Positions 27,001 through 51,000 are shown, numbered from the stretch's first letter. The stretch is DNA of 64,000 nucleotides from Candidatus Omnitrophota bacterium (GCA_030650425.1 JAUSED010000005.1:14932-78931), one strand, 5' to 3'. Numbers and translations are program-made. Notes: generated by a model from the letters alone, not told the origin.

Positions 27001-30000
27001 GCTAAACCACGGACAGTATCCCAGCTTGCATTTTACGCTCCTCCGGATTTAAGGTTGATGCTTTTAATGAAGATGAGGCTGTTAGTTAAGAAAGCAATTG
27101 GTTTAAAGTTAGAAGAGGTTAGGAAAGAGCTTAGAAGCCTTTTAGGTACTCAATCTGAAAAAGTTCTGCAGAAAATAGGCGGCGATAAGGAACTAATCAG
27201 AAATTTGGTTTTATGGGAATATTATAAGGCCATAAAGTCGGAGGATGATACAGAAGGATTGTTTAAGTTCGCAGAAGCAAAGATTACTGATAGCCTTGGT
27301 GCTTTGGTGGATAACGAGAATAAGGCAAAGATTATGGATCTTTTAGCTGCTTATGCGGATATTTCCCGTCCAATTGATGTCAGGGAAGGTGGCCAGGTCG
27401 ATAAAGGAAATACCGTAGAGGTCACTCTTATTACAAAAGGTGGAAAACTAAACGCGTTGGAGAATGCCGTTAAAAGATTGGCTAATAAAGAAATGGAAGG
27501 TATGTCCGGAGAGGAAAAGAAGAGGCAAAAAGAAGCAATTATCAAGAGAATAGGCAGTCACGCAATGTATTTTGGCGATGAATGGTGGCTTCCCGAAGAT
27601 CCAATCAAGGTAACATTAAATCCGAAAATTGACTATAAGCGAGTATTTGATCTTAATACATGGGAAATGACGCCGGAAGAAAAGTTTATTTATGAAAGCT
27701 GGTTTCTTGGCGACATAATCAAGGATGATAGAAAACTTACTGAGGTAGTCAAGCAGAGGGCTAAGGATACTGGCGAAGTCAGAGAAGGCGAATTGGCGGG
27801 AGATAAGATAAAAGAAAGAGTTGAGCTTATAAAAGGTAATCCTGCTAAATATTATTTTAGCCTTGACCAGAGCGGAAGTTTCATTTATGAAAATAAGCTT
27901 TATTGGCGCGGAGAAGGTAATGATGTTTCAACAGTATTCCATCCTGATGCTTTGAAGGTATGCGTAACAACCACAGATAGAATACCGCAAATTTCTAATA
28001 CGATAATGAAGGCAGTGGGTATAGGTAAAAAAGAGAAAGGGAAAGGCTATATCGTTTTAGACAAGCCGGAAGAGCTTAGCGCGGATTATCATGGAGTAAA
28101 GAAGATCAATACTCTAGCTTTTAAAAATGCAGGGGGGGATGGTTATTCTTATAAATTTGTCTGGATGCCGCAAGGTGATCCTGACGCTACCGCCAGATGG
28201 CTGACTAAGTGTATAAATGAAACAATACTGGAGCAAAAAGTTTCATCATCTTCCGCGTTAAGCTTAGGAAAATTGTTTATAGCGGCAGCCGTTCCAATGT
28301 TTGCTTTTTCAGCTTGTGCCCAGAGCGCAGTACAATCACCGTTAGTTACACAAATCTTTAACTCGATTTTAGATAATCCGTATATCAGCATTATTATAAT
28401 CGCAGCGTTGTCAGGAATATGGATTTATCTTAGAATAACTCGGGTACTAAGATTGATTAGGAAATTAACCAATTCAGAATCCGTTATCCGCCAATCCGCC
28501 TATGATGCTTTAGAAAAACTAGGTGCATTAACAACAGATTTAGAAATCAGTAAATATTCTGTAGATTTAAATATTAATAATATTGATATCACTGCAATCA
28601 ATGCCTTGAGTAAACTTAATGCCTTAACTACTGAACAACAAGAAAAGGCAGTCACATCTTTAAGGAATATGTTAAGTATTGCAAATGAAGAGATCCTATC
28701 TATTCCCCAATTTATCATTACTCATTATGCCGGAGAATCTTATAATCCTATTCCTTGGGAAAAGCCGAGAGGATATGAGATTGATGGTTATGAGGAAGAA
28801 ATTTTAACAGAGGAGAGGGTAGAAGAGAATTATGACTATTTTATAATTAATAGTCGCATAAATAGATTAGAAAAAGAAATTAAAGAAATAGAAAATCTTA
28901 AAACTTGCGATAGGGTTTTACTTCAAACTTCAAAGAATAGTTTTAGTGAACTAGAACAATTCTTAGCCGAAGCCCAAGCTCAAGGCAGAACAGTTTCAGC
29001 TAAGGCTTTAGCCGAGGAAATTGAGCGTAGGAATAAAGAGGGTCAGGAAAAGGAACAGAGGGAAAGAAAATTCGCTGAGTTGACCTCAGCAATGCAAGAA
29101 AAAGAAAAGATTATCGCTGAACTCAAAATCAGGGCAGTCGAGCTAGAAGCTAAACTCAATGAAAGCCGCCAACAGGAATCTAACGTAACCAGTGATTTAA
29201 ACCAAGCTCAAACCGAGAAAGCAAAAATTGAAGCTGCAATAACTGAGTTAACTGAAGATATGGCCGGGGCTACCCTAGCGAAAAGAAATATAACAGTCAA
29301 CGTTCTATCCGCTGCTCTTAATCAGAATCAGCAATCACTTCAACCATTGGTCCAGAAAGCTCAGGAATTAGAGAATCTAAAAATTACTTCAGCCAAACAG
29401 ACAGAAGTAATAGAAACAAACCTTTCCTTAATTCAACAAAACTTATCTACTGTTAAAAGAGAATTAGCAGCTCTTGATAAAGTGATGAGTGATTTACGAT
29501 CTTCCAGCCCTATCCAAACCGGTGCATTGGTTGGGACGAGGTTTGAGCAACAGGTTGCCCGGTTGATGGGCGTGGGGTCCCTTAGCGAAACCCTACGCGG
29601 TATTGATATTAGAACTAAGGAAGAATTGGCTAACGGGGCTATAGGGCAGATTAACTCGTTCTTAGCGGCAAAAGGCCTTTCCCTAGATATCATTACTCAG
29701 GAGCAATTTAACCAATTTTTTGGAGTGCGGCCCATAGTAATGGCTGCGGGTAATGCCACTAGATTCTCAAGGTTTATCCATAAGTGCCTTGCCTTCGCAG
29801 GGTTAGACCAGACTAATATCGCTAATGCCATCAAAGGCGCCTATACTTCTCCTGAAATTCTGCCGGTTGTAGCTGTCTCAGAAAAAATCTTTGGGATGTT
29901 GGTTAAAGATGAATATTTGAACGGTTATAATACCAGTAATTTTCACTATACTGTCAACGAAGATATTAAAAAAGAATATATCGTTGAACGCGCCTTGGGG

Positions 30001-33000
30001 AATAGCGAAAAAATCACCGGCAGATTAATATTACCTGATAATGAGATCATTGATCAGGGGAAAATGCTTAAGCTTTTCGGACAAGAGGCCATTCTGGCCT
30101 TAGCGAATTCCAAAGGCCATGGGGATGCTTTCATTATGATTGCTCAAAAACTTAAGGAAGTCGGTCTGCTTGCGCAGGTTGCCTATCTGCAGGTAGCTTT
30201 TGGAGAGATTTCGCCAGCAGTCTTGAATAAATATTATAACGCTTCATTTATTACCTATATGGAGGCGGTTGCCCATAATCATCTGGTTGTCAGTGGAGGC
30301 AAGATATCCAAGGGACAACTTAAAGCAAAGGGTCACTTTTTCTTCAACAATGGGCGCCTTATCTCTTATACAGATTGGGAACAGATTCCCCATAAGGCTA
30401 AGATGGCAGGTTATCAATATGATAAGATAGCCGAATTAGCCCCAGAGCAGGAATTATTGGAAAATAACTTGAGGGACCTTATCAAGGCGCATCAGGCAGG
30501 CGAAATTAACGACGCTGGTTTTAACGGTAGAATCACAGTTTTAAGGAATGAGCATCCCTATTATTTGATTTCTGATCAAGGCGTACTTTTTAGCCAAGAA
30601 ACGCTTGAGACAGCGGCAGAATATGTCAAAACAAGCTGGGCTAAAGGGTATAGCGATCTTACCGAAGGATTACGTAAAATAATCGATGATTACTTACTGC
30701 AAGTAAAAGATGCCAGCGGAGAAGAAATTACCGCGTTTTTAAATAAACATTTCGCCATTGAGATTGTTGATATGAAGAATAATAAAGCCGACATATTGAT
30801 TTCATCCAATACCGGAATCTTTAAATCGGAAGAGCTGATCCATTATCATGAAACAATAGCTCAACTCTATGACCAATTTAAAACGGCAGGTGAAAGTAAT
30901 CTGTTCTGGGGAATAGAACCGAAAGATAATTCAGAAAAAACCCTGACTTGGAATATTATCAGGATGATCGCGCAAAAGCCAGACAAGCAATCCCAAAGCG
31001 GCTTTCGTTTTGTAGGTGATGCGCCAGCATCTATCAAAGATGGTTCGCGTCAGCTTGGTTTTGTGAAAGAGTATCTTGAAGAATTCGGGATGCCTCAATT
31101 ATCGACAGTTATTGGATCTGAAGCGGAAACTATCGGTGCATCTTTAGAGCATCAGCAAATTGATCAGGCCTATAATCAATTCAAGTCTTCTATCGCGGAA
31201 AAAGATTTTGCCTTCCTACGCACACTTTTAGAGCAATTATTTATTTTCTGTTCACAAAAAGCTTCTCAGGGGAACCTCTTGGAGCTTATAGAAAGATTAG
31301 AAGCCAATCCGGATGAAATCGCTTCTTTAACCATTCTTAGCCAGCATTCTGCGCGGGCTCCTCCAGTAAACTTAATTAAAGGATTACTTATCCATACTCA
31401 ATATGAAGCCATTGATAAGGGTTATCTCTTTGAGGGGTTGGATAAGAGCCTTTGGATAGAAGAGAAATCTCCCCATCTTGCCGCATTATACAAACGTATT
31501 AAAGTAATCGCTGAGAAAGACAGCGATTACCTAATTGTCAGAATCAATGATATCGCCAGCCTGCTTAATGGAAATAATAACAATTCAGACATACAATCAT
31601 CCTCTGCCGTTATCAACCCGAGTTCGTACCTGCTAAATATCTTTTCTGAAAATCTAGCTCTATTAAATGCCTATATTGATAAAGCAGCCGTTGCCAGAGG
31701 GCTCAGCAAAGAAGAAATCATTAAAGGGATGTTTTATCCGGAAGATAGAGAGAGCGTACGGGGTAAGATAAAAGAAGAACTTTCTAATGGCCGGACCGGG
31801 CAGGAGAAGGAGAAAAGAGAGCGTTATCTTTGTTTTGGTGGTGGCAGCGGTACGTTGGCAATTTTGAAACCGCTAAATAAGCTTCTAACTTCTTTAAGTT
31901 CGGATAAGGCAGCTAAAAATGCTAAGAGATTTGTGCATGTGTTGCAGAGTTCTATTGATGACGGAGGCTCGACCTTTAAAATGATCACGGGATTGATCAA
32001 AAAAGGCTATGGCTGGATGCCTTCTGTAGGCGACCTAGTGAATAGCTTGTTTAAAGGCTTTGGGTCAACGGCAAAGTTATATAAGGTATTGGATGACCAA
32101 GGCCGCGTGAAATTAGCAAGTGAAGTTGACCTAGAGAAAGGCAAAATTCCGGCTATCGATAAGACCGGCAGGCCATTTGAAAAGGGAAAGATTGTATTTT
32201 TTGGGGAAGGATACGATACTGGCGATAAAAATGATGTGGTATACGTGGATACCTTTAGAGATTTAATGATTAGATTATTAAAACGTAATGTTACCTATAC
32301 TTTGGTTACGGAGGGCGGTATAGGTTATATGGAGCCCAAGATAAAGGCTTTAGACGAAGATTACGTGTATTTTATCAGCAGTATGATGAATCTCGTAGAT
32401 ATTATCGAAAGGTATATCAAAGATAAGGTTATTCCGTTGGATGGCGCCAGCATCAGAAATTTATTGTTGTTGGGGGCGATAGACTACCTCGGCTTAATTG
32501 ATATCCAACATCCGAAGTATAATGTTGGGGAACTTGAGTTCTTAGCGGCCGAAGAGAGAGAGTTTAAGCTTTTCCACGAAGGCTTAAAGGCCCTGGCTAA
32601 GATGGCGAAACTGGATGAAGTCGTTAAGGTGTCGCTTTCGCATAAGCATCCGACAACCGTGTATGCTGTGTTTGATGAGACTGTGATTTTGATTGAGGAC
32701 ACAAGTATAAATTCAGAAGAAAATAAGTACGTGGTTACAATAAAGGTAGATAAAAATCCCTTTCTCGAAGCGGAGGTTAGAGTCCACGGTGGTAAATACG
32801 GTCCTATAAAATACCCGCCGGTACGCCTCGGCTGGAAAGAGCTTATCGGAGTAGGGGGAGGAATCGAGATCTGTGTTCGGATCAATCAAGCCGGAGAGGC
32901 GTTAGTTAGTATTGGTAGGAAGGAAGATAAAGAACTTAGCAGGGAGATTAAAATCGTGGAACAAGAGTTTCTTGAAGAAAGCTATATTGAGTATATGGGG

Positions 33001-36000
33001 AAGAATTATCGAATGGTAACTGATGGGACCGGATTACTGCGTGAAGAAGTAAAAGATGCAAAGGGAGTATATGAATATAGGCCGCTTTCCATAGGGGCAT
33101 TGAATATTTTCATTCGTAATCGATTGGTCGCTATGCAGACGCATGTGACAGAGACCCCGAACTACTCTAAGGTTATAGATTTTGGGGTTGCAGAAAAAGT
33201 ATCGGAAGAATGGGTGAAAGTGGAAGAAAAACAAGAACCCCAGTTAAGGAATATATACAGGAAAAATCCAAAGCTGCGTTTGGTTTGCAATAAAGATGTT
33301 ATTCGGGATATCTTATCCAGTAAAACAAGGGGTATTACCTTTGGCCCCGGCTCGTTCTTTACCAGCACCATGCCTCACTTTTTGGTTAAGGGATTGGCTA
33401 AAGCCTTGGTCCAGCGTAGGAAGAGGGGTGATATTCCCATTATCTTTATTTTTAATCCTAGCGTAGATAATGAAACAGCAGGCTACAGCATAAAAGACTT
33501 GATGATTTTTGTTAAGACAAAAACCGGGTATAAATTTGACCAGATGTTTACCGGCATCAGCGTAACAAAGTTCGATACCGTAAAATTGGAAGAAAGTTTT
33601 GATGTTGACATAAAGAACCGGCCCTTAGGCGCCGATTGGTATGTTGAACGCGTACTGGAGAATTCGCATTTGATTGATGAGTTGGGGTTAGAATACATAA
33701 AGATGCTGATCGGAAAATATAGGGAGATGGAAAGGAAAGGAGAAGTAATCCAAGATGATGACAGGACAGAGATCATTGGTAAAGAGGCCGGCCGAAAGGC
33801 GAACCTGAAGGAGTATCTAGAGTATAAAATAGATCAGCTATTAAAAGCTCTTTATGAAAAACCCGTAGCAGAGATCCGCACAGACCCCGGTCAGGATTCC
33901 AAAGAAGCAAAGAAATCCCGCGGCCCCTTGTACTTAACTAAGGAAGATCAGTACCAGATTATGGAGGAATATAGGCAATTAAGGATCCACAAAGATGAGT
34001 TTATAGCAGGTGTTGAGTTTAGGCCGCCTCGAGGGACAGGAGATAGTTTAGGTTTAGGCATAGGGTTCTGGTCGGATTCTACGTTATACGGATTAGGGGA
34101 TGTGTTAGGGATTACAGGGTACGCCCAAAAATTAACCGAGGCCTATAAAACTATGGTTAAAGAAGAGGTGCCTGTGGAGCGCAGGGATGGACAGGATGAT
34201 TTCGCTTATATCTTTGACCAACTAAAACGGGCTATACTAATTAAATTAGACTCGGAAACACGAAAGTATTTTAACCAGTTATCGCTAAATGGCTTTAAAA
34301 GGGCGGTCAAAGGGGTCCTGATACGTGAAAATCTGGAAAAAAATAAGAAAGTTGGTTTTGGGATCGCCTTAAGGGCGAAGTTAGAATTTAATAATGAATT
34401 TATCTCTAGCCTAAAAGAGATTAAAGCGCAAATTTCTAAGATTATCCAGGGACGCGTGGAGTTTGATGATGAGTTACGGCTTAGCCTATTGGCTGTGGTA
34501 CGCACTAAGAATTACGAGGCAGGAAAAACAGAATCAGTTTATGCGGCGTATGAAGCAGTTAAAAGAGTTTTAGGAGAAATTGACAATTTCTTTGCGGAGA
34601 ATGTCTCGATTTATAACGGTAAGCTGATTAAGAGCGTAGAAGAAGGGATCAGAGAGATTGTGAAGGTTCATCAGCCTTTTGCCCTGAGGGTAACGGGTTT
34701 GAATTGTAGCGGTGGAAGTGGCCAAATCTATTTAGAGCTTGAGCCTATAAACCAATACGCGACAGAAGGAATATTGAAATTATTGAAGGTGCAGAAAGAC
34801 CTCGAACGCCTGCCTACAGAGTTAAGGATAAAAAGGTTGAATTTTACTTTGGGCCGCTTGACGCAGGCCTTAGATGATGAAGGACTTAAGGATTTGGATA
34901 GATTAAACAAAGACCTGGATTTTACCCATTTCATGCCGTTGAATGTACGTCAATTGGAGGCTTTGATTTATTGTGACCGACTCCACCGTGTTGTGGCAAA
35001 CAAGATTGATTTGACACTAGGCATAGAAAACGAGGTATTCAGTTTTACCGAGATGCTAGAGATTATCCGCACGCGGTATCCAAAGGCATTTGTAGCGTCA
35101 TCTTCTCCGGTTAATTCCAATAATATATTCAACGCCAATGGTTCGGTAGTTAAACCAATGCACATAGTCATGGTAAGCGCTGAGGCATATCCTTGTTCTT
35201 ATGCAGGATTCTTAGGGCAGAATTTAAATAGGCTAGCGAGGTCTTTTGGAGAAAGAGGTATCGAGGTAACGGTTATTATGCCTCTATACAAAATAACCAA
35301 AGATCAATATAGCGCCCAGTATAAATTTTATGGCCAGATTGATGTACCAATCGGTTATCAAACAGAGAAAGCAAAGATAGATATTCTTTCCGATGAGACA
35401 GCGGTATCCTATTATTTTATTGATAATGATAAGTATTTCGGAAGCGATATGTCTTATGGTGAATCTGGCAGATCTGATGATGCCAGTTATCAGAATCAAG
35501 CAGATCGGTTTGTCTATCTACAACGGGCCGCCTTGGAATTAATAAAATCCGGCATAGTGGCGCGTCCCGACGTCATTCATGTCCATGATTGGCCTATTTC
35601 CTTAATTCCTCTGCTGCTTAGCCCAAATACATCCGTATATAGTGATGACATAGCTTTAAAGAATATACCGGTTGTTTTAAGCATTACTAATTTCACCTAT
35701 AACGGAATATTTGATAACCCGTATCATGTCGCATATTTAACGGGTCTACACCGGCCTGCGCAGGCAGTTTATCCAGCGGCCTTGGAATTCTACGGCCAAG
35801 CAAATTGGTTAAAAGCAGGGATAATGTCCGCTAGAAAGATTGTTACTGTCGGGTCTACCTTTAGAAACGCGACATTAACCGCGGAATCGGGATTTGGATT
35901 AGAGAATATCTTAAAACTTAGAGAAAATGATTATTTAGGTATATTGCCTGGAGTTGATTATGAGGCCTTTGACCCGGTAGAGGACGTATGTATTGAAGAA

Positions 36001-39000
36001 CGATACACTGTAGAGACTATTGACCTTAAGAGTAAAAATAAGGAAGCCTTATTAAAAAGCTTTAATCTCCCTCTGGAGGATATAGGTCAACCGATATTAA
36101 CGATAATTTCGAAGCTGGATAAAATGAATGGTATGGATTTATTAGAACAAACAATGGAAGATGTGCTGAAATTGGATACTAAAATTATTATTATGGGAAC
36201 CGGGGAAGAAAGGTTTGAAGATTTTTTTAGGAGGATGAAAGAAAAATATCCAAAACGCGTCGGATTATATATCGGTTTTGATTCAAACTTAATGCATCTG
36301 ATGATTGCTGGCAGCGATATATATATAATGCCTCATTCTGCTGTGCCTGGTTCATTTGTCCCCCTGTATAGTTTAAGGTACGGCACAGTTCCTGTAGTAA
36401 ATGCCATTGGTATGTTGAATGATGCGATAATAGATTCAGGACTGCCGGGAGAGCAAACCGGTTTTAAATTTCATGGTTATTTGCCCAATAATTTACTCTA
36501 TAAAATAACCGAAGCAATCGAAATCTATAGAAGGGATCCGCAGAGGTGGGAGCAGATTATGAAACAAGGGATGCAGCAGGATTTTTCTTGGAATATAACA
36601 GCTCAAAAATTTGTAGAGCTGTACAAAGAAATACAAAATCTTAGCTGGCTGGAAGAGAGCATTATACCGCCATTTAAGATGGAGAGAGCCGAAGGGATAG
36701 GTAAGAATAATATATTTGATATTGCTTTACCACGGAGTAAAAAAGACAATTTAATTAGCGGATTCGAACAAGCTAAGCGCATAATCTCATTACGTTACGC
36801 GCAGGATATAATTAACCCCGATGATTTGTGGATAGAAATTCTCAATATGCAAGATTTATCAAGGCACCGGAAAGACCGGGATAAAAATATAATTTTACTG
36901 GATATGGAGGTATTAAATAACCCCGATTTGGTTGCCGCGCTGATGATTAAGGAAGCAGAAATAATCGTTAATAATGGGGTAAGTGGGGAAGAACAGGCAT
37001 TAAATTATATAAGAGTTTGGGTGGATCTTTTCCAGCATTTTCATGCTCTTAATCCTGATAAACAGGCAGGTTTCCTAGCTTCCCTCTTGTTTGATAAAAG
37101 GCATGATAATAAGTGGCTTATTTCATCATTAGTGAAAACTTATAATCAAGAGTTTATATTTAAAGAGATGTTAGATGTATTAAAGCATAATCCGCAATAT
37201 GAAGTGGTGGCAGACTCGGCTGATATTTTCGAAAAAGCATATGAAGAATCCGCAGAGAGAAATATCCTTACTTATATATTAGAATACGCATATTCTAATA
37301 ACCAGTTTAGTTCGTATTACTTGAATAAAAAAGATTTTGAAATCAAATTTAGTTTAATAGTTCATATGTCGGGGGTAATGGCGAAATGGAACTATGCCCC
37401 CGTTGTCTTTTGGGATGTCCTATACCAGGAATTAGTTAAAATTGGTTTTGCTAAAGAAGTTACCCTATATTATGATCGAAAAGAAGAGGGAAAAAGTGGA
37501 ATAAAGATCTTTATTCCCGATTTTGAGAAAGTACCGTATTATCAAAGAGAAGAGCAACAATTGATAGCCGCCAGATACATCGCGGCTTATATTAATAACG
37601 GAGCAAATTCGATAGGGGCTTGCCGAGTCCTAATAGAAGGTGTAGACGAGGTTTTCTTTTTAATTATATCCCAAGTATTTAAAAATGGATATGACAATCC
37701 TTTAAATAAAAACGCTGAAACCACCAGCCAATACTTAACTAATTACTACGGGGGAAACTTTATTATAGAATTAGTCAAAGGAAAAATACAGGCATTAGAA
37801 GAGATGCCAAGATTAACTATTGAGCGAGAGGGAATGTTTAATCCGTTCAGAAATGTGCTGGTGGGTTTAGATATGGGCGGCTCTTATATAAAGCTGGTAA
37901 TCATAATCAATGGCAAGATAGTGTCTCTTGAGCAAGATTCAATAGAGACGGGGCAATTTAAAAGACTGGAAGACGGCAGCCAGATTGTGCCTGAAGACTA
38001 TACAGGTGAAAATTTATTACAAAAAATTGATCATTTTGTGCGCTCATCTTTAAAAAAAGCTAGGATTAAACTAGAGGAGGTAGCCGCAATAGGCGCAGCT
38101 TGGGCGGGCGCGATACGTAACAATAGAATTGCAGGCTCTTCCACTATGCTTTTTAATCTGAGAGACTATTTTAGCAATCCAGAAGTGCAGATTAAAATGA
38201 AGAATTTGTCTGATACATTATCCAAAATATTTGATAACAAGCCTGTTTATCTTATAAACGATGGAGACGCAGATGCTTTTAAGATGAGCCTAGAAGAAAA
38301 TCTCGCTGATGTGCTTGTGTTAAAATTAGGAACCGGTTTAGCGGGCTCCTATATCGATAAGAGTGGTTCGATAGCCATAGGCCTCCATGAATTCGGGAGG
38401 ATACAATTGAATTTATCCCCTAATGCAACACGGCATCCATTTACGGGAGTGAAGGGATTAGGAAGATTATATGTTTCCAGCCAAACAGCAGTTGAATATG
38501 GCAAGAAAGCGGGATTAATAGATAAAGTAAAAGAATTGGGGAATATGTCATTTGAATCTAAAACGGTCAGTATGTTGATTGCGGCAGGATGGGATGCCCA
38601 GTATGTTTTTGAAGACGTATCCCGCAATATCGTTGATGCCATAATACATTTACATGAATTTTACAATAACAGGAACGTTTTACTATCAGGCGGGGTGTTA
38701 AAAGGGGCTACTGGATCATTTGTCCATGAAAAAGTACAAAAATTATTATATACCAAATACAGTGGTTACAAAATCAAAACCTACCTAGCAGCTGAAACGC
38801 AGATTGGTGGAGCAATAGGAGCAGCGCAATGGGCTAATTTTAATTACCAATTAAAAGAAAAGCCTACGATTAATGAGTCAGCTTCTTCTGTAGTTAACGC
38901 TCCTGGCCCGGATCTGTTAAATATTTTTTCCAATAATACCGAGTTTTTAAAAAGCTATACTAAAAAGGCGGCTAAATCCAGGAATATTATGGAAGAGAAT

Positions 39001-42000
39001 GTCGTTAGAGGAATGTTTCATCCTGATGACCGGAATGTGGTAAGGAAAGAGGTAGGGGAGCAGATTGTTTTAATGCATGCTCCTCCGAAAAATAAAAAGC
39101 GTATTATGTGTTTTGGCGGCGGAAGCGGCATGTTGGCAATTCTGGCGCCATTAAAGAATCTGCTATTGTTGTTGAAGGATAAAGAGACTTATGTGCATGT
39201 GCTGCAGACATCCATTGATGATGGCGGTGCGACATTCAAATTAGTGATGGCATTAATTAATAAAGGGTATGGTTGGATGCCGTCTCCGGGAGACTTGGTA
39301 AATTCGCTTTTCAAAGGATTTGCCAATATATCCAAGTCGTATAAGATTTTAGATGATCAGGGCAGGTTAAAGCTGGCTGCGCAGAAGGACTTAGATGACA
39401 GGAAAATACCAAGTGTTGATAGCAAGGGGACTAAATTCGAGGTAGGTAAGATTATATTCTTTGGCGAAGGATATGATCAGGATAGCAATATAGGAGACGT
39501 CGAGTATCTGGATAGTTTTAAGGATTTGATGGTCGCGTTATTGAAACGGAATGTAGAATACACTCTGCAAGCCGTTAACGCAGGGATAGGCTACATTCAA
39601 CCGAAAACGAAAGAATTAGATACGGATTTTGTGTATTTCGCTACCAGTATGCTGAATCTAGCGGATATTCTCCAAGAGTATTTTAATCGAGGAATCATTC
39701 CGTTAGAAGGGGCAAGTATCCGTAATTTATTGTTATTAGGTGCGATAGATTATCTGGGATTGATCGATATAAATAATCCTAAGTATAAAGAAAACGAGCG
39801 TAGTTTCATGGCAGATACAGAAGAAGAATATAAGTTATTCCATAAAGGGTTAGAAAAGTTAGCTGAGATGGCAGGGATCGGTGGTATTGCTAAGGTTTCA
39901 TTATCACATAGATACCCAGTAACCGTGTATGCCGAATATGAAGAGAATGTAATTCTGATTGACGATAAAAGCGTGAAAGAAGAAGAAAACAAATATGTAG
40001 TTACAGTAAAAGTAGACCAGAAAAATGGTAGGGTTACAGTTAGAATTTATAGAGAAGATAACCTTATCGAGGTATACCCGGTGAGTGTAGATTTGACAGA
40101 GGAGATTGATATAAGTGAAACGATTGAAATGAATGTTAAAGTAAATAAAGCGGGGGAGGTATTTATTGGGATAGTTAAACAAGGGGAAGGGAGCCAGCGT
40201 CAGTGGTTTAAGCTTGTAGAAAAAGAACAGCTTGAAGAGAGCTATGTTGAGTATAAAGGGAAGACGCATCGCTTGGCAATTGACGGGACTGGTTTGGTGA
40301 GGCATGAAGCAGGTAAGGATGTGTATGAGTATCGGCCGCTTTCCTTGGAAAGATTAAATGTGTATGTGAGGAATAGATTGGTTGTTATGCAGACGCATAT
40401 TACAGAGACAGCCAACTACTCAAAGATTATCGATTTTGGAGTAGCAGAGAAGATAGGTGAAGAAGCGGTAGTAGAGGGGGGTAAGAAATTTAGCAGGTAT
40501 ATTTACACTAAAAATCCAGACTTACGTTTAGAGGAGAATGAAGATATCGTTAATGAGATTCTCTCTCCAGAGACAAAAGGGATTACTTTTGGTCCGGGGT
40601 CATTCTTCACGAGCTTGATGAGTTACTTTTTGGCAAAGGGATTGGCGAAGGCTTTAGTTGAACGCAGGAAAAGAGGCGATATCCCGATTGTTTTCATTTT
40701 TAATCCTACGGTTGATAATGAAACAGTAGGGTATGAGATTGAGGATTTAACCTCTTTTATTGAAAAGAAGACTAATTATAAATTTAATAAAATGTTTACG
40801 GCCATCAGCGTAACAAAGTTTGATACCGTGAAGTTGGAGGAAGAGCGTTTATTAAAAGATAGTGGGAAACGGCTTCCAGCAAAATGGTATGTTCAGCAGG
40901 CGTTGAAGAAAGATTCGCAATTAATCGAAACATTAGGTTTAGAATACATAAAGATATTGATAAACAAATACAGATTTATGAAGAATCGTGGCCAGAAGAT
41001 TGTTGATGATGATGGAACGGAGATCGGCGGGGGCGAGGCAGGCAGGGATGAATATTTAGAATATAAGATCGCTCAGTTGTTAAAGGCGCTGTACGAGGTC
41101 CCTAAGGCAGAGATTCGTACAGATCCAGGCAAGGCGTCTAAAGAGGCAAAGAAATCCCGCGGGCCATTGTATTTAACTCGAGAGGGTCAAGGAAGTATTA
41201 TGGATAAGTATAAAGATTTGATGATATATAAAGATCAATTTGTAACAGGTATTGAGTTCAGGCCGCCTCGCGGAGCAGGAGATAGATTAGGTTTTGGTAT
41301 AGGTTTTTGGGGAGATTATACGCTGTATGCGTTTGGCGATATGCTAGGGATTACGCATTATGGACAGTTTATGGCGGAGATTTATAAGGATAAGGTAGGT
41401 AGTATTCCTTTGGAACGAAGAAGGGGGTGGAGAGGGGACTTTGAGCGCATATTTGATCAGATAAAGTGGGGGATGTTTGAATTAGCGCCAGAGGCCAGAA
41501 GGTATTTTAATCAGATGTCTTTACATGGATTCAAGAGGGCAGTCCGGGGGATCCTGATGTGTGAAAATCTCGCGAAGAACAGCAAGCCCGGGTTTGGAAT
41601 TACCCTTAGGGCGCAATTAAAATTCGCTGAGAAAAAACCCGAAGAAGACGCAGTTGTAGCTATGATAGAAAAGATTAGAGCGGAGATAAGTAACATTACG
41701 CATGGCCGCGTAGAGTTTGATAATGTGCTGCGGCTTAGTTTATTAGCTGTGGTGCGGACTAAGAACTATAAGAAAGGAGATGGAAAGTCGATTCGCAAGG
41801 CATATAGAGAGACGAAGCGTGTTTTAGAGGAGGTCAAGAAGCGCTTTGAGGACAATCTGCTGATTTATAATGGTAAGGTGATAGAGAAAGCCGAGGATGG
41901 AATCATAGAGATTATGAAAGAAAACCGGTCATTTAGTTTAAAGATTAGCGGGGTTAGTTATGAAGAGGCTTCTGGCGAGGTGTCTTTGGAATTAGAACCT

Positions 42001-45000
42001 ATTAATGAATATGAGGGGGATGAATCGTTAAAGTTGTTGAAAGTGCAGGGAGATTTAGAGAGGTTACCTACGGAGCAGAGGATCAATAGGCTGCGTATTC
42101 CTCTGGGATGGATGACGCATGCCTTGGACGATGAGCAGGTAGATGAATTAGAAAAAATAAATGGGAATAATAATTTAGAATTTTCTCAGTTAACCCCTAT
42201 AAAGGTAGATAAGCTAGAGGTTTTATTGTATGGTGACCGAAGACATCATAATATTATAGAAATTATTGAATTACAATTAGGTCAAGAAAACCCGCCTTTT
42301 AGTTTTGAGGAGATGTTAAAGAAGGCGCGGAAAAAATACCCGGAGGCATTTGAAACGACATCAACTTCGTCTTCTCCGCTTGAGATAGATGATGGATTCC
42401 GGGTATTGCCGGAAATTAAAGGAAGGACAAAATTAATCCGTACTAGTTATAAACGAACAAGAAACGGCTTTTACAAAGCCGCAAGTATTACTATTCCAGA
42501 TTATGATGTAAATGATCCCGTGAGTATTGAATCCACTGCCACTAGGCTTGCTATCGAGCTTAACAATAGGCTGGCAATCTTTGGCGGGGATAAGATTAGA
42601 TTAGCCGTAGACAAGAACCTTTTTAAGAGGGTTAATGAAATATTCTTTGGATTTGGAGCTCCCTGCTATTTCCAGAATAATGGATTTCTGGGTATGGTAA
42701 CATACTTGAAAACTGTTTATGAAAGCAAAGAATTTGTTATGGAACGCCTTGAAGAGGGGGCATTGGAGGATGAGTCCTTCAGTGAAGTGGAGGTTATCAA
42801 TTCTATTGATACAAGGGGCCTTTGGTTTGGGCTTGATATTGGCGGTTCTGATCTAAAGACTGTTGTAGTCTATGATGGCAATCGGATTCATCATAAGATA
42901 ACTAAATGGTCGCCTAAGACGATGATCGATCCGCATGCCGAAGATGGGCATATTCCTGTGATTAAAAATATTCTTGAAGGCGTGGTGAAGGAAGCTAAAG
43001 ATAAAGGGTGTGATACCTCTAAAGCCATGGGTATAGGTGTCAGCGTTAACTTGGCTGTAGTGAATAACAAAATAACCGGGGTTGGGCATTTAACCGCGGG
43101 ATTAAAGAACGCTGAACAGATTGACGTTGTTAGGGGTTTGGGTAAAATTTTAGAGCAAGAGTTTGGTTTGTCTGTTTATGTTATAAATGATGGCGACGCC
43201 GCTGCAATCCAGACAACCGTCGACATGGGGTTGCAATATGCTCTTAGTATCGCAGGCGGCACAGGATTAGCTATGGGTTATGGTTCAACACAGTTTTTGA
43301 CCGAGGGCGGTAAAATTATGATTGATGTATCCGAGACAGCGGCGGAACACGGTACAACAGGTATTAAAGGAAGCGCTCAACAATATATCTCTCAACGTGC
43401 TGTATTCAGGCTCGCAGCAAAGGCAGGTATTGGTTTAAGTAGCCTTGAGAGGGATGCCGATAAGCTAACTTATATGCAGAAATTATATGAAGAGAACGAT
43501 GAAAAAGCTGTTTTAGTTTTTAATGAGATGCCGAAATACCTCGCGGAGTTTATTAAAATTGTTTCAGAGATCATACGAGTTGACAATGTTGTACTCTTTG
43601 GGCGTATCAGTAAAGGTGCGGCTGGCCGTGACTACATAGATAAGGCTCAGGATATCCTTAACCAACGCGGTAGTAATATAAAGATTCTTTTCCCGAAAGC
43701 TCCTTATGGCGTTGACCAAGAGATTTACCTTGAGGTGGGGCAGGCCGTGGGAGCAACATATTATGCCAGCTATATGTTTCATAAGAATCTCAAAAGATTG
43801 AATGATTCTATAAATGTCAGCAGTCCTTTAGAAAGGATGACTATCGAAAAAGGTATTTTTAAAACCAATGATATCCGGGCTGCTCATGCCGAAAGTAGTT
43901 TAACAAAAGAGGTCACGCGGAGGATAGTCAGGGGTTTTGCGACTTTTAGTGCCGAAACCTTAAAGAAGAAAAATTTAGTATTGACAGTAGGCAGAGATGT
44001 GCGTTTGACATCAGATAAAATTCACAAGGATAGTGTAGAGGCTTTGAAAGCAAGCGGAGCCCGAGTAATTGACTTAGGGATAGTGACAACAGGGATGCTT
44101 TATTATTCTATACCCCTCTACAAGGCTGATGGCGGCATTATGATTACAGCAAGCCATAATCCTTATCATTACAACGGATTCAAGATGGTTTTGGGGTTAC
44201 GTAATACAGTTAGAGAAGAACTGGTTAGAATTCATGAGATCGCCGAAAGCGGCCGGTTTATTTCAGGAAGAGGCTGGAAGGAAAACAGGAATATCCTTAA
44301 CGAATACAGGAAATTATTAGAGAACGCATCCGGTGATTTAAATGGTTTAAAAATAGCGATTGATGTTTTAAATGGGGCAGCGGCTATCTTACCTCTTACG
44401 GAGATATTTGAATCTTTAGGCGCTAGGGTCATAATTATCAATGGCGAAGCGGATGGTAACTTTCCTAACTGCGTGGACCAGTCTCCCGATCCATCCCTAT
44501 TTGTCAATCGCCAGAATCTTGTAAACATTGTTAGGGAGAAGGGGTGTGATGTGGGCATTGCTTTCGATGGAGATGCTGATCGCTTGGTGTGCGTAGATAA
44601 TACTGGAGAATATATTTCAGGCGATATTGTTTTGGCAGTGTTAAGCCGGGATGGGCTGATTAAGAATCCGGGGGGAGTTGTGGTTTTTGATGCAAAGTGC
44701 AGCTTAGCGCTTACTAAAGTAGTGGAGGGGATAGGTGGCCAGGCTATTCGCTGGAAAACGGGTTTTTCTAACATTAAAGAGAAAATGGAAGAAACAAATG
44801 CTGTTTTAGGCGGAGAACAGTCAGGACATTTTTTCTTTAAGGATCATTATAATATTGATGATGGAGTTTACACAGCCGTTAGATTTTTAAGACTTATCGC
44901 TAAAGCAAAACAGCAGAATAAGAGGGCTCACGATTTTGTTTATGAAATACCGCATTTTCCTTCTACTCCGGAACTTAGATTTGAGGTTACCGGCGATTCT

Positions 45001-48000
45001 CCCGACGCGGAAAAACATCGTATTATCAAAGAGCTTAAAGAGTATTTCATCGGCCAAAATTATCCGATCGATGAAACGGACGGCCTTAGGATACTTTTCC
45101 AAAACGGATGGGCTTTGGCCAGGGCTAGCGGTACACAACCAATGATTATCTGTCGCGTTGAAGGAGGGAATAAGATTTCCTTGAGGACTAGCCTTTCCAT
45201 CTTATTTAGGAAACTTCGAGACTATCCCCGGATAAAAATAGGCCCTTGGAATGCTTATTTGGAAGAGCCCAAGGGATTAGCTAGAAGAATTGATTTAAAC
45301 GATCGTAATTTTTCTCTTAGAGAAACTGTTGGACAGGCGTTGCCTCTAGAATATTATTATCAGACAAATATGGAAGAGTTTGGGTTTAGTAAATACGTCC
45401 ACACTGAATATCCTTATGTTGGGCAAACAAGTTATTGCTTGGGGGGAGAATTTTTAGTGACTGAAGAGAACAAAGCCGATTATAAGGTGATTTATTTCGG
45501 AAAGATAAACAATCCAGATGGGCGCTACGAGGCAGAGATTTTGATTTACTACGCGGTAGTAAGTCATGCGATTCACATTGTCATAAAGGACGCAAGCAGA
45601 GATAGTTTTATTTTTGGGAGCAGTGCGAAGCGGGGCGAACTGGATTGGGATAAGGCTATGATTATTATGTACTTAGGAGAGGGTTTCAATGTTAAAAATG
45701 TGACGCATAAGGTAACTCCTATGGGGATGTCACGTTCTATGATAGCGATTGTTATCGAGGATGCGCATATTAGTAGATTTTTACCTGAACTATACCGGAT
45801 TTTTCGGATTCTTCTTGGGCTTCCAGAAGTCAATGAACAGACCAGAAGGGATGAGAAGATAGATAGCGCTATTGTTCCTTTAAGTTTAATCGTTAAAGCT
45901 AATGAAAATCCCGGAGATCTTAACGAAGATGAGATTGAGCGGGTCAAATCTTTTGTTTCTTATAAGAGTTGGGCGCTCAAGAGGATTGGGTTGGATACCT
46001 TAAAGAGGTTGCGTGGTGTAGGCAGGGTCACGGATAGCGACGTGGAAAAGTACGACAACGCAGGCCTAATGAGAAATGCTAATGAGGATTTATTACAGAT
46101 TGATAGATTGTTAAGGAGCGATAAGAAGTTATTGAACGAGGCTTTGAATAATTTAAATATACAGGCTGGTCCTGTTAAGCAGATGGAGCTGGAATATTTC
46201 GAGAGAGGGAATAATAAACAGGTGTATGTCAAATTTTGTGACGAAGAATTACCGACTATGGCTGTTTCTGTTATTCGCTATGGCAGCTTGGGAGTGGAAT
46301 TCAATAAACTGGCCATCATTGAATCGATGAGGCTCTGGGAAGACTTATCCGGAAATAGCATAGAAGAGATCGTGAAACTTGGCAGTTATCGCCTTATGGA
46401 AGATTATCGCCCTCGTTTTAGCGATATCAGCTTTTTGCCAAACGCCAGATATGAAGGCTATATCGATGTGAGTAGATTTATTTACAACAATATTGTTATT
46501 GTTTTCAGGGAATTTGCCGAAGGACGAAATTTGAAAAAGGTTTTAGATGATCCCCATGTTTCAGAAGCCCAAAAACATCTAGCGTTAGAGTCAGCCATTA
46601 GGACATATTTAAGGTTCTGGATAAAATCTAAGAATAAGGAAGGGCAGAGGCTATTTATTGGTGATCCCACGCCATTTAACATTGTTCTTCTTGAGAAGGA
46701 AGAAGGTTATTCCGGGAAGATCATTGATTTAGATGGTATTCAGGTAGTTAAGTCTCTTGAGGATTGTTTAACGATTCTTTTTAACGTTGGTTATGGCCGG
46801 AATACGATTTTAAAGATTGCGAAAGAGGTGAAAGATGCCGGAAACGTTAGTTCTCCCGTATCGTTAAGACACCGGATATATATAACAAGCCTTGGAGGAG
46901 GTTCAGGGCCCCAGAGACTGGCCAAGGGTATTATTCGCTATAACTGTTTTCTTTCTAATATTATAACCGTTTTTGATAATGCTGGGAGTACTGGCATTAT
47001 GCGCAGGGCTTTAGATATTCCTGCCGTAGGGGATTTACGCAATAGGCTTGTTACCCTGCTGCCTGAAATCAAAGAAAACAAAGTAATAGAAACGATATTC
47101 AATTATAGGTTTCCCGAGGAAAGAGAAACTAGAAAAAATAATGAAGAACTAACGGAGGAGTTAAGAAAAATAATTAAAATTAGTGAAAAAAGTTTAGGGA
47201 TAAGAGTGCCTAAAGTAAAAAAAGAATTTTTGCAAGGTTTAATAGAATACTTTATTCAGGAAAAGATTAAAAAGGAGCATGGATTCAGATTGTTTGAAGC
47301 GAATGTGGGTAATATCATCTTAGCGGGTAGATATTTCAGAGAGAAAGAAGATTGGGTTTCGATTATGAAAAAATTATGCGAGCTCTTTGGCGTAAATCGA
47401 TATGCGAAATTGATTCCTGTGAGTTCAGAGAATTTGGATATTGCCGCGCGTCTTGAGAATGGAGAGATTTTTTACGGAGAGCATGAGATTGCTTTTCGGC
47501 CAGATCAGGAAGCGAAGATTAAGGAAATATTCTTTGTTAAAAGAGGTTCACAAGAGAAAGCCGATTTACCTGAAGCCACAGAAGAAGCCTTAAATGATAT
47601 TGGAACCGCAGATATAATTATTATTGGCCCCGGGAGTATAACTAGTTATATCCCTGTTTTGTTAACTCGTGGAATTGCGGGAGCAATCAGACAATCTCAG
47701 GCGGCTAAGGTTTTGCCGGTCAATATTTCTTGGTATAACTTTAGAGAAGGCTTTGCGGAAGCCAAAGGATTAGCAGCTAGTGATATGGTGAGAATGGCAT
47801 TTGAATCGTTAAGAAACGCGGATGAACAGCCTAGTAATAGGATTAGCGATTACATTCAATATGCTTTATTGAATCTTCCAGTTTCCACTCAATTCTATCA
47901 TATTCCAGCTGATCTAGACAATATTCGCGCAATGGGGGTAGAGCCAATCGTTTCTAACTTTGAAGATGATTCTACGCCCGGTTATCATAATTCAGAAAAA

Positions 48001-51000
48001 ATCGCCAAAGCAGCTACAGAAATATATAAGCATTATCTTAATAATCGGACAGATAAGCCAAGTTCGCCTGTAGAATATAAAATTATTCCTATTGGTTTTG
48101 CCGATGATATTTTACAGATTTTAGACAAATTAAATATTAAAGGCGGTAGTATTGAAATTTCAAATGGCAAAGATTGGCTTACTAGAGAAGTGTATGAATT
48201 TGTGGATATATTGGTTCAATATCTCTTGTCGTTTGAGGATGTGAGGACTTTGAGATATTGGAGGGATGATTTAAAATTTGCCTTAAGGGAGGCGATCGAT
48301 AACTCGATTGCGCATGCAAAGGGAAAAGTTTGGATAATCTGGGGAGTAAAAGAAAACAAACTTATTTCTGAAGTTAAGGACGAAGGAGATAAAAAATTTG
48401 AATTGAATACTATAAGCTCGGGGAAAAGAATTTTAGACAAATTTTCTGATCCATTTTCGGATGGCAAAGGTATTGGGCTTAAAATTATAAAGAATTGTGG
48501 CGCGGATAATGTATATATTGTTCTTCTTCTGGATAGTTCTGAAAAAATTATTGGGAATAAGCTTGTTTTAGAGAAATCATTCTTCAGCTCTCCGGTAGAG
48601 GCAGCAGAAGGAAGGATGCAAATCTTGACTTATAGAATAAGTTATAACAGTAAATTTGAGGCAATGGTTATTACTGCTTCAAGCGCTATTTTACTAAAGC
48701 CAAGCGGAGCTAATTTTTATCTTTTGGATCAGCCTATCGCAGGCTCCCCGCTTAAAAATAGATTTACGGGGCTTGCTCCGCCTACGAAGATTGATCCTGC
48801 CGCAGCATTTAATCTTTCCAATACAGATGTTTCTTACACAACTTCTTCTTTACCAATAGGTTCCATAAACGCTCTACAATACCATTACTTAACTTTAGAA
48901 TCTGGAGATAAGTATTGTGTTCCCGGAATTGCCAGAATTGGCGTCTCCTCTTCTCCATTGTTATCTTCGGAGATATTGGGCTTAGTAGTATTATTATTTC
49001 TATTATCATCATTCGTAGTCGCTTGCGTAGTAGGATTGATTTATAAACTTATATCAACATTAGTATTGATTTCTAAACGTATATCAAAGAATGGCACAGA
49101 AGAGAGATCTTGGATAGAAGTTGCAGTAGAAGAGTTGGAAAACATGCCCATATTCCCCGTATACAAAGAAAGAGAAATAGAGGAGCTAAATAAACGTATG
49201 ATAATTTTTGGGCAGCTATTGAGAGAAAAAGAAAGAGGCATAATTGTTATTAGTAATTTGAGGCTGATAGGAAATGATTATTATGAAAGTAACCTTAGCT
49301 GTATGTTGGATAAATATATTAGGAATAATAATTTAGAAACCAATTTGCTTATTCAACTCGTAACCTCAGATGTTAAAAGTTTTGCAAGAGTTTCTTCAAG
49401 GATCTTACGTGAGAGAAGCGAGATTAAGCGTAACAAGATAGCTGTAGAGTTAATAGAAGATTTATCGAGGATGCCCAAAAGATTCACAGTGTTTGCTGAT
49501 CTGCATTCTGGAGGAAATACATCGATTGATAATGTTTTATATTTTAGCAAATTGGAAGAACTAAAGAGGCAGCTTACCGCTGAAAATTACATCTCTAGTA
49601 GTCCTTTAGTAGGAGATAATTCTTCTCTTCAAAGATTAAATATAAAGTTAACTAAGCAGGCCTTATCTCGGGGTAGAGTAGATTTAACCAAAATATATGA
49701 TTCTAAGCTTAAGTATTTTTTAAGATTCTTGGTTAAAAATAATCTTGAGGATATAATCCTTATGGGTGGTGGTGTCAGGGATATATTCTTTGATTCCGAG
49801 ATAACCGATGCGGATGTAAGCATTAAATTATGGCTAACTATAGAGGAGGTAGCCATTTTTGATAGATATCCGCGTTATCCCGCTAACTCAAGAATATACC
49901 ACCGCGTATTAGAGTTAACTGAAAAATTATCCTTGGCATTGGGAGAAGAAGAAAATAGCCTGCTATGTTTTAACCACAACCACAAAGTGTATTTTAACGG
50001 CTTAGAGGTTCAGTATGCCGGGCCAAGGGAGGTTACTGCTGTAAGCGGGCAAAAAGTTGTGATCAACCGTTTCACGGTAGATTCTACTACAAGAAGAGCG
50101 TTTACCTATGTCTGTGGGGCGTCTGCACTTTTAATGGGCCTGGATTGTTTTGGTAATTTATACGGGTTTTATCAAGAAGCGCTTGAAGATTTACTCGCAG
50201 GCAGGACAAGATTAATTGGCAGACATAATTTTACCTTTGGTATGTTATTGCGTATGCTTAGGCTAAAGCATCAATACGGACTTAAAATACCTAAAGATGA
50301 CTGGGGTTTTTGCCTTGAAGAACTACATAAATGGAAGCAGAGTGGTTTGTCTAACCTTATTTGGACTCCAGTAATAGATGAACAGTTAGAAAAGGTTATT
50401 TATAAAGCGCGAGATAAAAAGTCGGCAGAAAAGGAGTTACGCTTTTTAGGGGTAATAGAATTGGCTGCGAATTTGAAGAGAAGTTCTAGCCCTCTTAAGA
50501 CAGGCGCATTGGTTGGGACGAGGTTTGAGCAACAAGTTGCCCGGTTGATGGGCGTGGGGTCCCTTAGCGAAACCCTACGTGGTATTGATACTAGAACTAA
50601 GGAAGAATTAGCTAACGGAGCTATAGGGCAGATTAGCTCGTTCTTAGCGGCAAAAGGCCTTTCTCCGAATGAGAATAAAGCGGAATTAGCCAAACAAGAA
50701 GCTGCTGAAGGGGTAGAGGAATTAATACTTGACGTAGATAAAATTATGCTTAATCTTCGTCCCAGCTCGCCGGTAATAGGTAATGTTGGCGGCTTAAATG
50801 AAGAGAGAATAATCGAAGAAGACGCGCGGAGCATATTACATGATGCGCCTAGCTTCATAGGAGAAATAATCTTGAGGATATTTAACGATAAATTAAATCA
50901 AAATGATATCCGCAAGATGGATATTATTTCTATAGGCGAGGGCGGCTATTCTACTGTATTTAAAGTAACCATTAATGATAAATATGCCTTTGTTCTTAAG

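Follow-up and report, generated by a model that had tools for sequence, protein, structure and literature searches.

An old, interrupted duplication of a CofD/YvcK-type module within a giant multi-enzyme gene of an Omnitrophota bacterium

CofD (2-phospho-L-lactate transferase of F420 biosynthesis; PF01933) transfers a phospho-group from a GDP-linked donor. In the same superfamily, YvcK/GlmR (UPF0052; structures 2O2Z, 2HZB, 2Q7X, 2PPV and 2P0Y) is linked to nucleotide-sugar chemistry: GlmR binds UDP-N-acetylglucosamine (UDP-GlcNAc), the purified protein forms it from GlcNAc-1-P and UTP, a uridyltransferase activity that falls ~100-fold in a D40A/D41A/N198A triple mutant (PMC10128056). Giant proteins of the Omnitrophota ('Archaeovorins') have been reported to contain glycosyltransferase (GT) domains of families GT5 and GT1 and phosphoglucomutase (PGM), with elongation by duplication raised solely for Dockerin and thrombospondin repeats (West-Roberts et al. 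2023, 10.1101/2023.11.21.568195). A 2026 preprint (10.64898/2026.06.07.730766) describes a 'multi-enzyme metabolic' class with a sugar module of PF08323, PF00534, PGM, REC and ROK, and reports that 65% of long proteins repeat a Pfam family, the repeats being old duplications whose nucleotide similarity has dissolved. Neither of these two studies mentions CofD/YvcK domains or the module described here. We analysed a stretch of 64,000 nucleotides (nt) from a Candidatus Omnitrophota bacterium (GCA_030650425.1 JAUSED010000005.1:14932-78931), called the window below, in which a module of ~1,180 residues with an expanded CofD/YvcK-type core occurs twice. The account that we favour overall, and consider probable, is a single old duplication of the module alone, with both copies kept and a putative nucleotide-sugar role.

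The window is an internal piece of one giant gene, open at both ends, because frame 0 of the + strand contains no stop codon across 63,999 nt (positions 1–63999, at least 21,333 codons) while the remaining five frames of a six-frame count hold 752–2,196 stops each; the three short internal open reading frames (ORFs) listed for the window all lie on the opposite strand. All features given here are on the + strand, and residues are numbered along the translation of frame 0. Chunked self-BLASTP of this translation yields a single dominant collinear diagonal, pairing residues 10532–11710 (copy M1, nt 31594–35130) with residues 12959–14133 (copy M2, nt 38875–42399) at an offset of 2,413–2,428 residues, or ~7.27 kb. 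Each 400-residue chunk of M1 matches M2 at E = 1e-131 to 2e-161 with 47–64% identity, and a hidden Markov model (HMM) of the module scores 1,872 bits on M1 and 1,892 bits on M2. In a MAFFT alignment the copies are identical at 57% of positions (663 of 1,159 aligned columns) with only 16 + 20 gap columns, and identity per 100-codon window is fairly even along these columns, at 47–71%. Nucleotide identity in the codon alignment is 63%, falling to 43% at third positions; by the Nei-Gojobori method the proportion of synonymous differences (pS) is 0.77, which is saturated, and the nonsynonymous distance (dN) is 0.33. The duplication is thus real and far beyond chance. The initial annotation had placed collinear paralogues at 31600–35110 and 38880–42380, proposing a self-comparison as the check; its coordinates are right to within a few codons, its by-eye estimate of 50–60% amino-acid identity and its impression of low nucleotide identity agree with the measured values, and its view that the gene grew through duplication followed by divergence holds. 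One stretch of the alignment, codons 900–1000 (region of nt 34201–34500), has a pS of 0.59 with the rest at or near saturation, and may carry a trace of old partial gene conversion or a codon constraint.

Each module begins with a short helical lead-in, followed by a CofD/YvcK(GlmR)-type core, a conserved middle region and, as its fourth part, an end resembling 2H phosphoesterases. The CofD-like part is therefore the first half of the module, and the middle region and the degenerate 2H-like end had been missed previously. Both copies terminate in the motif SSSP (nt 35098–35109 in M1 and 42367–42378 in M2), as annotated, although their starts, where the same motif had been claimed, carry only the degenerate forms QSSSA and ESASS.

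To place the duplication in time we used module homologues gathered from a protein search, a genome-contig scan and a profile search of 1.84 billion representatives; individual homologues are cited by handles (P for proteins, L for loci). A neighbour-joining tree of 17 module copies joins M1 and M2 as sisters with 96% bootstrap and places as their nearest outgroup, with 90% bootstrap, P0007 (MDZ4242050.1, a 'CofD family protein', partial in length, encoded by a metagenome-assembled genome, MAG, of Candidatus Omnitrophota). Over shared columns M1 and M2 are 60% identical, compared with 57–62% among modules of different Omnitrophota MAGs. Because the two copies are as far apart as modules of different MAGs and their synonymous sites are saturated, the duplication is ancient, as had been proposed. 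Both copies also have the same derived states in the 2H-like end, namely a change of His to Arg together with a 5-residue deletion at 2H motif 1, and replacement of the second His, which places the degeneration of this domain before the duplication. Among sites at least 85% conserved in 19 other family members, 52 of 53 are kept in each copy, the departure in M2 being H to Y at residue 13542, and relative-rate tests reveal no asymmetry that is consistent across outgroups (p > 0.1 with five of six). Both copies have thus remained under purifying selection since they arose.

What was duplicated is the 3.5-kb module alone, in an interrupted arrangement, and not a tandem unit of 7.27 kb as the initial annotation had it. 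The copies neither abut nor lie in homologous periods: 3,744 nt separate M1 from M2, and in self-BLASTP an older ROK paralogue is all that this spacer has in common with the sequence downstream of M2. The order of domains is M1, GlgA, ~400 residues without a match, ROK1, M2, ROK2 and PGM. Outside the repeat, a complete GlgA domain (GT5 + GT1; nt 35158–36633) matches TIGR02095 with 377 bits against a cut-off of 328.45 over model positions 1–477 of 477, and PF08323 with 159 bits; it is followed by the ~400-residue segment (nt 36634–37848), for which Pfam is negative over nt 36550–37872. ROK1, a sugar-kinase domain directly upstream of M2 (nt 37849–38874), scores 42.5 bits on PF00480 (profile positions 2–291 of 294; gathering score 22.9), and ROK2, downstream of M2 (nt 42814–43812), matches partially with 23.8 bits. 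Contrary to the earlier statement that both units carry a ROK paralogue, the ROK domains are not collinear with the repeat: an HMM scan of the window for ROK-like domains finds exactly these two, and no third ROK beside or upstream of M1. They are only 29% identical, and in a tree of eight ROK-like domains they are not sisters, ROK2 pairing with P0084 (97% bootstrap, 51.5% identity) and ROK1 with P0027 (80% bootstrap). Since they are so diverged and not sisters, ROK1 and ROK2 are older paralogues that were not co-duplicated with the module, and the 7.27-kb period is not a repeated unit.

A related MAG offers a picture of how such a duplication may begin. Contig QNCK01000101 (P0001, L003; Omnitrophota) holds a 4-kb ORF fragment in which the end of one module abuts the start of the next, the junction reading ...NASSPLKS..., and the overlapping parts of the two copies are identical at 99 of 104 residues (95%) and 299 of 311 nt (96%). 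Because these abutting copies are nearly identical, in-frame head-to-tail duplication of the module seems to occur independently in relatives. In the lineage of the window, the ~1,180-residue module would have been copied once, long ago, inside the giant multi-enzyme gene; the first step would be a head-to-tail duplication like that in the related MAG, and a second would be an insertion or rearrangement that put GlgA, the match-less segment and ROK1 between the copies. Two module copies of differing types are also found by the module HMM within each of P0004, P0007, P0010 and P0014.

Other histories have to be weighed against this one. If two paralogous free-standing module genes, like those of P0002 and P0003, had fused separately into the growing ORF, the free-standing genes that do exist would be their counterparts, and stop-codon loss is a plausible route, given that other genomes distribute this domain set among large genes in succession, with gaps of 22–130 nt. 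Yet the closest relatives (P0007, P0004, L005 and P0001) already hold the module in long multi-domain ORFs, M1 and M2 have derived features in common (the 2H histidine loss, the 5-residue deletion and the SSSP ends), and tandem in-frame copies are seen directly in P0001; we therefore regard separate fusion as unlikely. We find it still less likely that a true 7.27-kb tandem unit of module and ROK was later remodelled, with GlgA entering the first unit, PGM joining the second and the ROK domains diverging faster than the modules. Each period does contain one ROK domain, and between lineages ROK does evolve faster than the module (~26–29% compared with ~50% identity, window against L005), but the ROK tree contradicts this history, the ROK positions within the two periods differ (offsets of ~6.3 kb and ~3.9 kb) and, apart from ROK, the spacers share no homology.

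The sister relationship of M1 and M2 might alternatively be one of appearance only, produced by later gene conversion between old paralogues of the kind seen in P0004, with its type A and type B modules. Proteins with several module types are common (P0004, P0007, P0010 and P0014), one 100-codon window has the lower pS of 0.59, and from a 180-nt repeat (93% identity) it is clear that conversion or recent copying takes place in this gene; against this, identity is even along the module (47–71% per 100 codons), type B modules are just 25–32% identical to M1 and M2, and near-universal synonymous saturation means that any conversion was itself ancient, leaving this history improbable to a high degree. 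An assembly or sequencing artefact, whether collapsed or chimeric, has a negligible chance of explaining the repeat: giant repetitive genes are prone to misassembly, as the 4-kb P0001 contig with its near-identical ends illustrates, but 37% of nucleotides and 43% of residues differ between the copies, a divergence that an assembler cannot make out of one sequence, the frame is open throughout and the flanks of the copies differ. Single duplication of the module alone remains our preferred history, and three points weigh against it. The trees, of 17 module copies and eight ROK-like domains, have few taxa and were made by neighbour joining on simple distances; the duplication may have occurred in a free-standing gene before fusion, the sister status of the copies being silent on the place; and old gene conversion between older paralogues could mimic that sister status.

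The expanded CofD/YvcK-type core in both copies, as annotated, is borne out by Pfam, by alignment with YvcK structures and by motif spacing. In M1 it spans nt 31819–33711 and carries GGGSG (residue 10613), DDGG (10653), GPGSFFTS (GPGS at 11115) and NPSVDNET, with the assignment coming from Pfam, the YvcK alignment and an AlphaFold2 model; in M2 it spans nt 39091–40983 with GGGSG (13039), DDGG (13073) and GPGSFFTS (GPGS at 13531), assigned by Pfam, NCBIfam and motifs. The superfamily motifs GGGxG, DDGG and GPGSxxTS thus occur in the same order as in solved YvcK structures. One tile of each copy passes the PF01933 gathering score of 30 bits (38.7 for M1, 32.6 for M2), a second, overlapping M2 tile falling below it at 27.0 bits, and the match covers only ~110 residues, profile positions 139–254 (nt 33202–33537 in M1). 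The family profile aligns with 2O2Z on both sides of the expanded region, positions 92–159 with residues 3–60 and positions 565–634 with residues 178–244, and both halves of the core also match the YvcK structure 2HZB. Pfam and NCBIfam return nothing for the N-terminal 530 residues of either copy in the window.

Compared with YvcK/GlmR, the module has the same GGGxG, DDGG(S/A), GDxxN helix, GxS(I/L)xN, GPGSxxTS and NxxxxNET motifs and, by gene context, the same carbohydrate and nucleotide-sugar setting. It differs in having ~310 extra residues between DDGG and GPGS and ~480 further C-terminal residues, and in being embedded in a giant ORF and not in a yvcJ-glmR-yvcL operon. With a core of ~630 residues, compared with ~310, it scores far below the cut-off of 196 bits of the YvcK/GlmR subfamily TIGR01826 (34.6 bits for M1, 38.6 for M2). 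With CofD it has in common the Pfam match above gathering and relatives annotated as 'CofD family protein', but M1 and M2 have no match to CofD proper (TIGR01819, at least 257 bits) and no F420 context, their neighbours being sugar kinase, mutase and glycogen synthase.

The DDGG–GPGS spacing is 462 residues in M1 and 458 in M2, against 147 in YvcK (2O2Z) and ~215 in a third CofD-like domain of the window, giving an excess of ~310 and ~250 residues, respectively. The initial annotation had described this as one insertion of about 250 residues; the excess is real, but alignment with canonical-length CofD-like proteins spreads it over at least four sites, so that there are several insertions. Two of those in M1 are large. 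Insertion A (residues 10697–10799, nt 32089–32397), of ~100 residues and with an alpha/beta character in alignment and model, lies between the GDLVNSLFKGF and GASIRNLLLL helices; insertion C (residues 10873–11044, nt 32617–33132), of ~170 residues and beta-rich, is placed around a native beta-hairpin of the fold and is the least conserved region between M1 and M2 (47–50% amino-acid identity). An AlphaFold2 model of M1 residues 10585–11237 (nt 31753–33711), built from a 21-sequence alignment that leaves out two rows from genome loci, reaches a mean predicted local distance difference test (pLDDT) of 86.2 and a predicted template-modelling score (pTM) of 0.82, and in it the large insertion is predicted to fold as a beta-rich sub-domain. 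Searched with Foldseek, this core model has no match in the PDB or BFVD at E <= 1e-3; matches to lipocalin-like beta-barrels were too weak to count as evidence (probability <= 0.77, TM <= 0.36). A whole-module AlphaFold2 model from a 4-sequence alignment was unusable (pLDDT 42.5) and was excluded from the fold search. Because the GGGxG–GPGS distance varies continuously among library matches, from ~250 to ~770 residues, the DDGG–GPGS region of the fold evidently represents a hot spot for elaboration.

The third CofD/YvcK-like domain (nt 46882–47958) had been described as having canonical spacing. It does match PF01933 over its full length (161.5 bits, profile positions 1–288 of 290), but contains ~70 extra residues and is better termed near-canonical. 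Its best NCBIfam match is the GAK-system CofD-like family TIGR04357, at 158.6 bits against a cut-off of 340 (positions 8–360 of 368), a family that M1 and M2 match weakly (21–24 bits); on TIGR01819 the third domain scores 27.8 bits.

Downstream of the core, the conserved middle region (nt 33712–34323 in M1, 40984–41559 in M2, the latter from alignment with M1 and homologues) has strongly conserved motifs, IRTDPG..S.EAKKSRGP and FRPPRG, which are kept across homologues, and no known-family match in Pfam. The module then ends in a domain (nt 34324–35097 in M1 and 41560–42366 in M2) that we tentatively identify as 2H-phosphoesterase-like, of the LigT / 2'-5' RNA ligase kind, from weak profile matches and His motifs in module homologues. 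P0001, P0002, P0004, P0005, P0008 and P0027 give recurrent weak matches to LigT_PEase and 2_5_RNA_ligase2 (PF02834, PF13563) in the same part of the profile, with scores of 15.8–23.4 bits against cut-offs of 23.3 and 27; the LigT_PEase score of P0001 (23.4 against 23.3) is the sole one reaching its cut-off, and no matched stretch passes alone. Both 2H motifs (LHMTI and LHISL) are kept in P0001, P0002, P0004, P0005 and P0027, and the second alone in P0008 and in P0006, which has no Pfam match. M1 and M2 differ from 2H phosphoesterases in that both histidines are replaced (LRLSL and LNFTLGR in M1, LRLSL and LRIPLGW in M2), so that neither has the two H-x-[TS]-x motifs of that family; the domain appears to have been catalytically dead before the duplication. 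Pfam and NCBIfam, including PF02834 and PF13563, give no match for the C-terminal 470 residues of M1 or M2, and a profile of the C-terminal domain found no 2H phosphoesterase among PDB sequences.

The surroundings of the modules suggest what they might do. Pfam tiling of the frame finds more than 15 distinct families, among them a carbohydrate-related set made up of the starch/glycogen synthase (GT5 + GT1), the two ROK kinases, a four-domain phosphoglucomutase/phosphomannomutase (PGM_PMM I–IV; nt 43846–45192, by Pfam and NCBIfam matches) and the full-length CofD-like domain; elsewhere lie GGDEF, response-regulator receiver, GT2 glycosyltransferase, CBM30, LysM, HATPase_c, GNAT and HEAT repeats. 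A crude hydropathy scan places 31 candidate membrane helices in the frame and none within residues 9480–16329. Because it lacks candidate helices, this block of ~6,850 residues, which holds both modules, GlgA, both ROK domains, PGM and the third CofD-like domain, would form one soluble stretch, with the scan as the sole basis.

In Pfam tiling of the 64 kb no NTP_transferase-type domain is found, so the nucleotide-sugar step between mutase and synthase appears to be left without an assigned domain in the window; since ROK, PGM/PMM and GlgA are present, we propose the core of the module for this step. We equate D40/D41 of GlmR with the DDGG motif, which is invariant in the module family. By analogy with GlmR and CofD, the core would bind or make a nucleotide-activated hexose used by the neighbouring glycosyltransferase. 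The module, linked repeatedly to ROK kinases, PGM and GlgA, would thereby provide or gauge the nucleotide-sugar step that connects the mutase to the glycogen synthase. Its added beta sub-domain and dead 2H domain would offer surfaces for binding or scaffolding, and each copy would have its own specialised partners or substrates. The idea that a nucleotide-sugar is handled by the core is tentative, with somewhat less than an even chance of being right, and it is doubtful that the core itself performs a pyrophosphorylase-like step. We are equally sceptical of a more ambitious combination, in which the module would be the missing nucleotide-sugar enzyme of a fused kinase–mutase–NDP-sugar–glucan-synthase line on a membrane-anchored giant, and the gene a set of interchangeable units bounded by SSSP(V/L/I/A). 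Several observations tell against a nucleotide-sugar role. The core scores far below the YvcK cut-off of TIGR01826, as given above; at the position that we read, from GPGS..TS..PN, as the putative equivalent of GlmR N198, most family members have His, and M2 has Tyr; the rest of the gene or genome beyond the window may encode a conventional GlgC or GalU; the cytoplasmic placement of the block comes from the crude hydropathy scan only; and the putative role of the module family is drawn by analogy only.

The module architecture is rare. A library profile built solely from M1 and M2 retrieved 91 representatives at E <= 1e-3 among 1.84 billion proteins, about a dozen of which carry the whole module, and a word-indexed search of 5.8 billion proteins gave three matches. 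The nearest homologues (P0001, P0007, P0010, L005 and L006) are labelled Candidatus Omnitrophota, and scans of genome and metagenome contigs found no closer relative. Elsewhere the module exists as a free-standing gene, of 1,273 residues in P0002, which has an N-terminal hydrophobic segment and is preceded, at a distance of 37 nt, by a separate gene for a ROK-like protein with homology to ROK1 and ROK2, and of 1,327 residues in P0003. It is found on the same polypeptide as PGM in P0012 and P0014, and as ROK in L005, P0027, P0039 and P0084. In L005 the module ORF fills all 22 kb examined, with the ROK domain upstream and ~1,000 residues inserted between the CofD part and the C-terminal part. 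The gene for P0005 (2,793 residues; L009, contig Ga0598270_0000168, 1–19616) follows two very large genes on the same strand, one encoding hexokinase, HATPase and HEAT and the other B12-binding radical SAM, DegT and HAD, with gaps of 130 nt upstream and 22 nt downstream. This locus resembles an unfused version of a giant gene. The same toolkit thus occurs in varying order as separate genes, as large genes and within giant genes, which fits growth by fusion and duplication.

Just upstream of M1, a unit at nt 29500–30480 (residues 9834–10160) has no Pfam match and is 27% identical to residues 688–992 of P0010 and 431–757 of P0014, where it follows a module; judged from these matches, it is probably another conserved member of the same toolkit. 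A YHE(L/I)xSHI...EDAAxADT motif, resembling the HExxxH of metallopeptidases, occurs shortly before or after modules in P0007, P0009 and P0010.

These findings bear on how bacterial genes reach tens of thousands of codons. With an ORF well beyond 10,000 residues that combines PF08323, PF00534, PGM, ROK and REC among many Pfam families, the gene belongs with the multi-enzyme metabolic giants of the Omnitrophota, and resembles them further in its length (more than 21,000 codons here), in its domains (GT5, GT1, PGM/PMM, ROK, REC, HATPase_c, GNAT and HEAT), in the many predicted membrane helices of its frame and in its old, diverged internal repeats. It differs in what was repeated, a multi-domain block of 1,180 residues and not a short Dockerin, TSP3 or WD40 repeat. 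The phenomenon is known in outline, and this is a clear but fairly ordinary example of giant-gene growth; the literature searched contains no description of the module itself, of how it is built, of its free-standing form or of its association with ROK and PGM. The locus provides a cleanly dated and well-bounded case of growth by copying a whole multi-domain block, and the occurrence of that block as a free-standing gene beside a separate ROK gene supports the idea that operon-like sets were fused and then amplified in one frame. As a variant of the CofD/YvcK superfamily with a new architecture, the module marks out a rare, unannotated branch that is associated with sugar kinases, phosphoglucomutase and glycogen synthase; nucleotide-sugar chemistry in this branch would bear on the disputed function of YvcK/GlmR-like proteins generally.

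The SSSP motif that ends both copies is the most over-represented 4-mer of the frame, with 21 occurrences in 21,333 residues against 0.26 expected from composition (80-fold); for [AS]SSP the count is 26 against 0.5 expected. Sites include nt 2452, 29500, 35098, 42367, 48946, 49594, 50482 ... 62848, the following residue is nearly always V, L, I, A or M, and the signal acts at the protein level, because the codons vary. SSSP stands at unit boundaries: at the ends of M1 and M2, at the start of a 60-residue repeat and just before the membrane helix at residue 16329. It is absent from the 7,478 residues of L005, and ASSP is found at the module junction of P0001. Nearby Met residues, looked for as marks of former gene starts, showed no consistent pattern. 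SSSP may serve as a linker, as a site of processing or as a joint for recombination. Were the interchangeable-unit reading true, it could act as a joint at which modules are duplicated and shuffled, as a site of proteolytic processing, or as both, and the duplicated module would be one such unit caught in the act.

The sole near-identical nucleotide repeat of the window is a direct repeat of 180 nt (29502–29681 and 50484–50663; 92.8% identical), which encodes 60 residues starting directly after SSSP at residues 9834 and 16828. Its copies bracket the 21-kb helix-free block that holds the two modules and their neighbours from GlgA to the third CofD-like domain. The repeat stems from a recent duplication or gene conversion and could serve as a substrate for recombination. 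Further downstream lie two pairs of diverged repeats (48472–48882 and 54028–54444; 54154–54420 and 59158–59421) of ~90–140 residues and 42–52% identity, each ending at SSSP followed by a hydrophobic segment.

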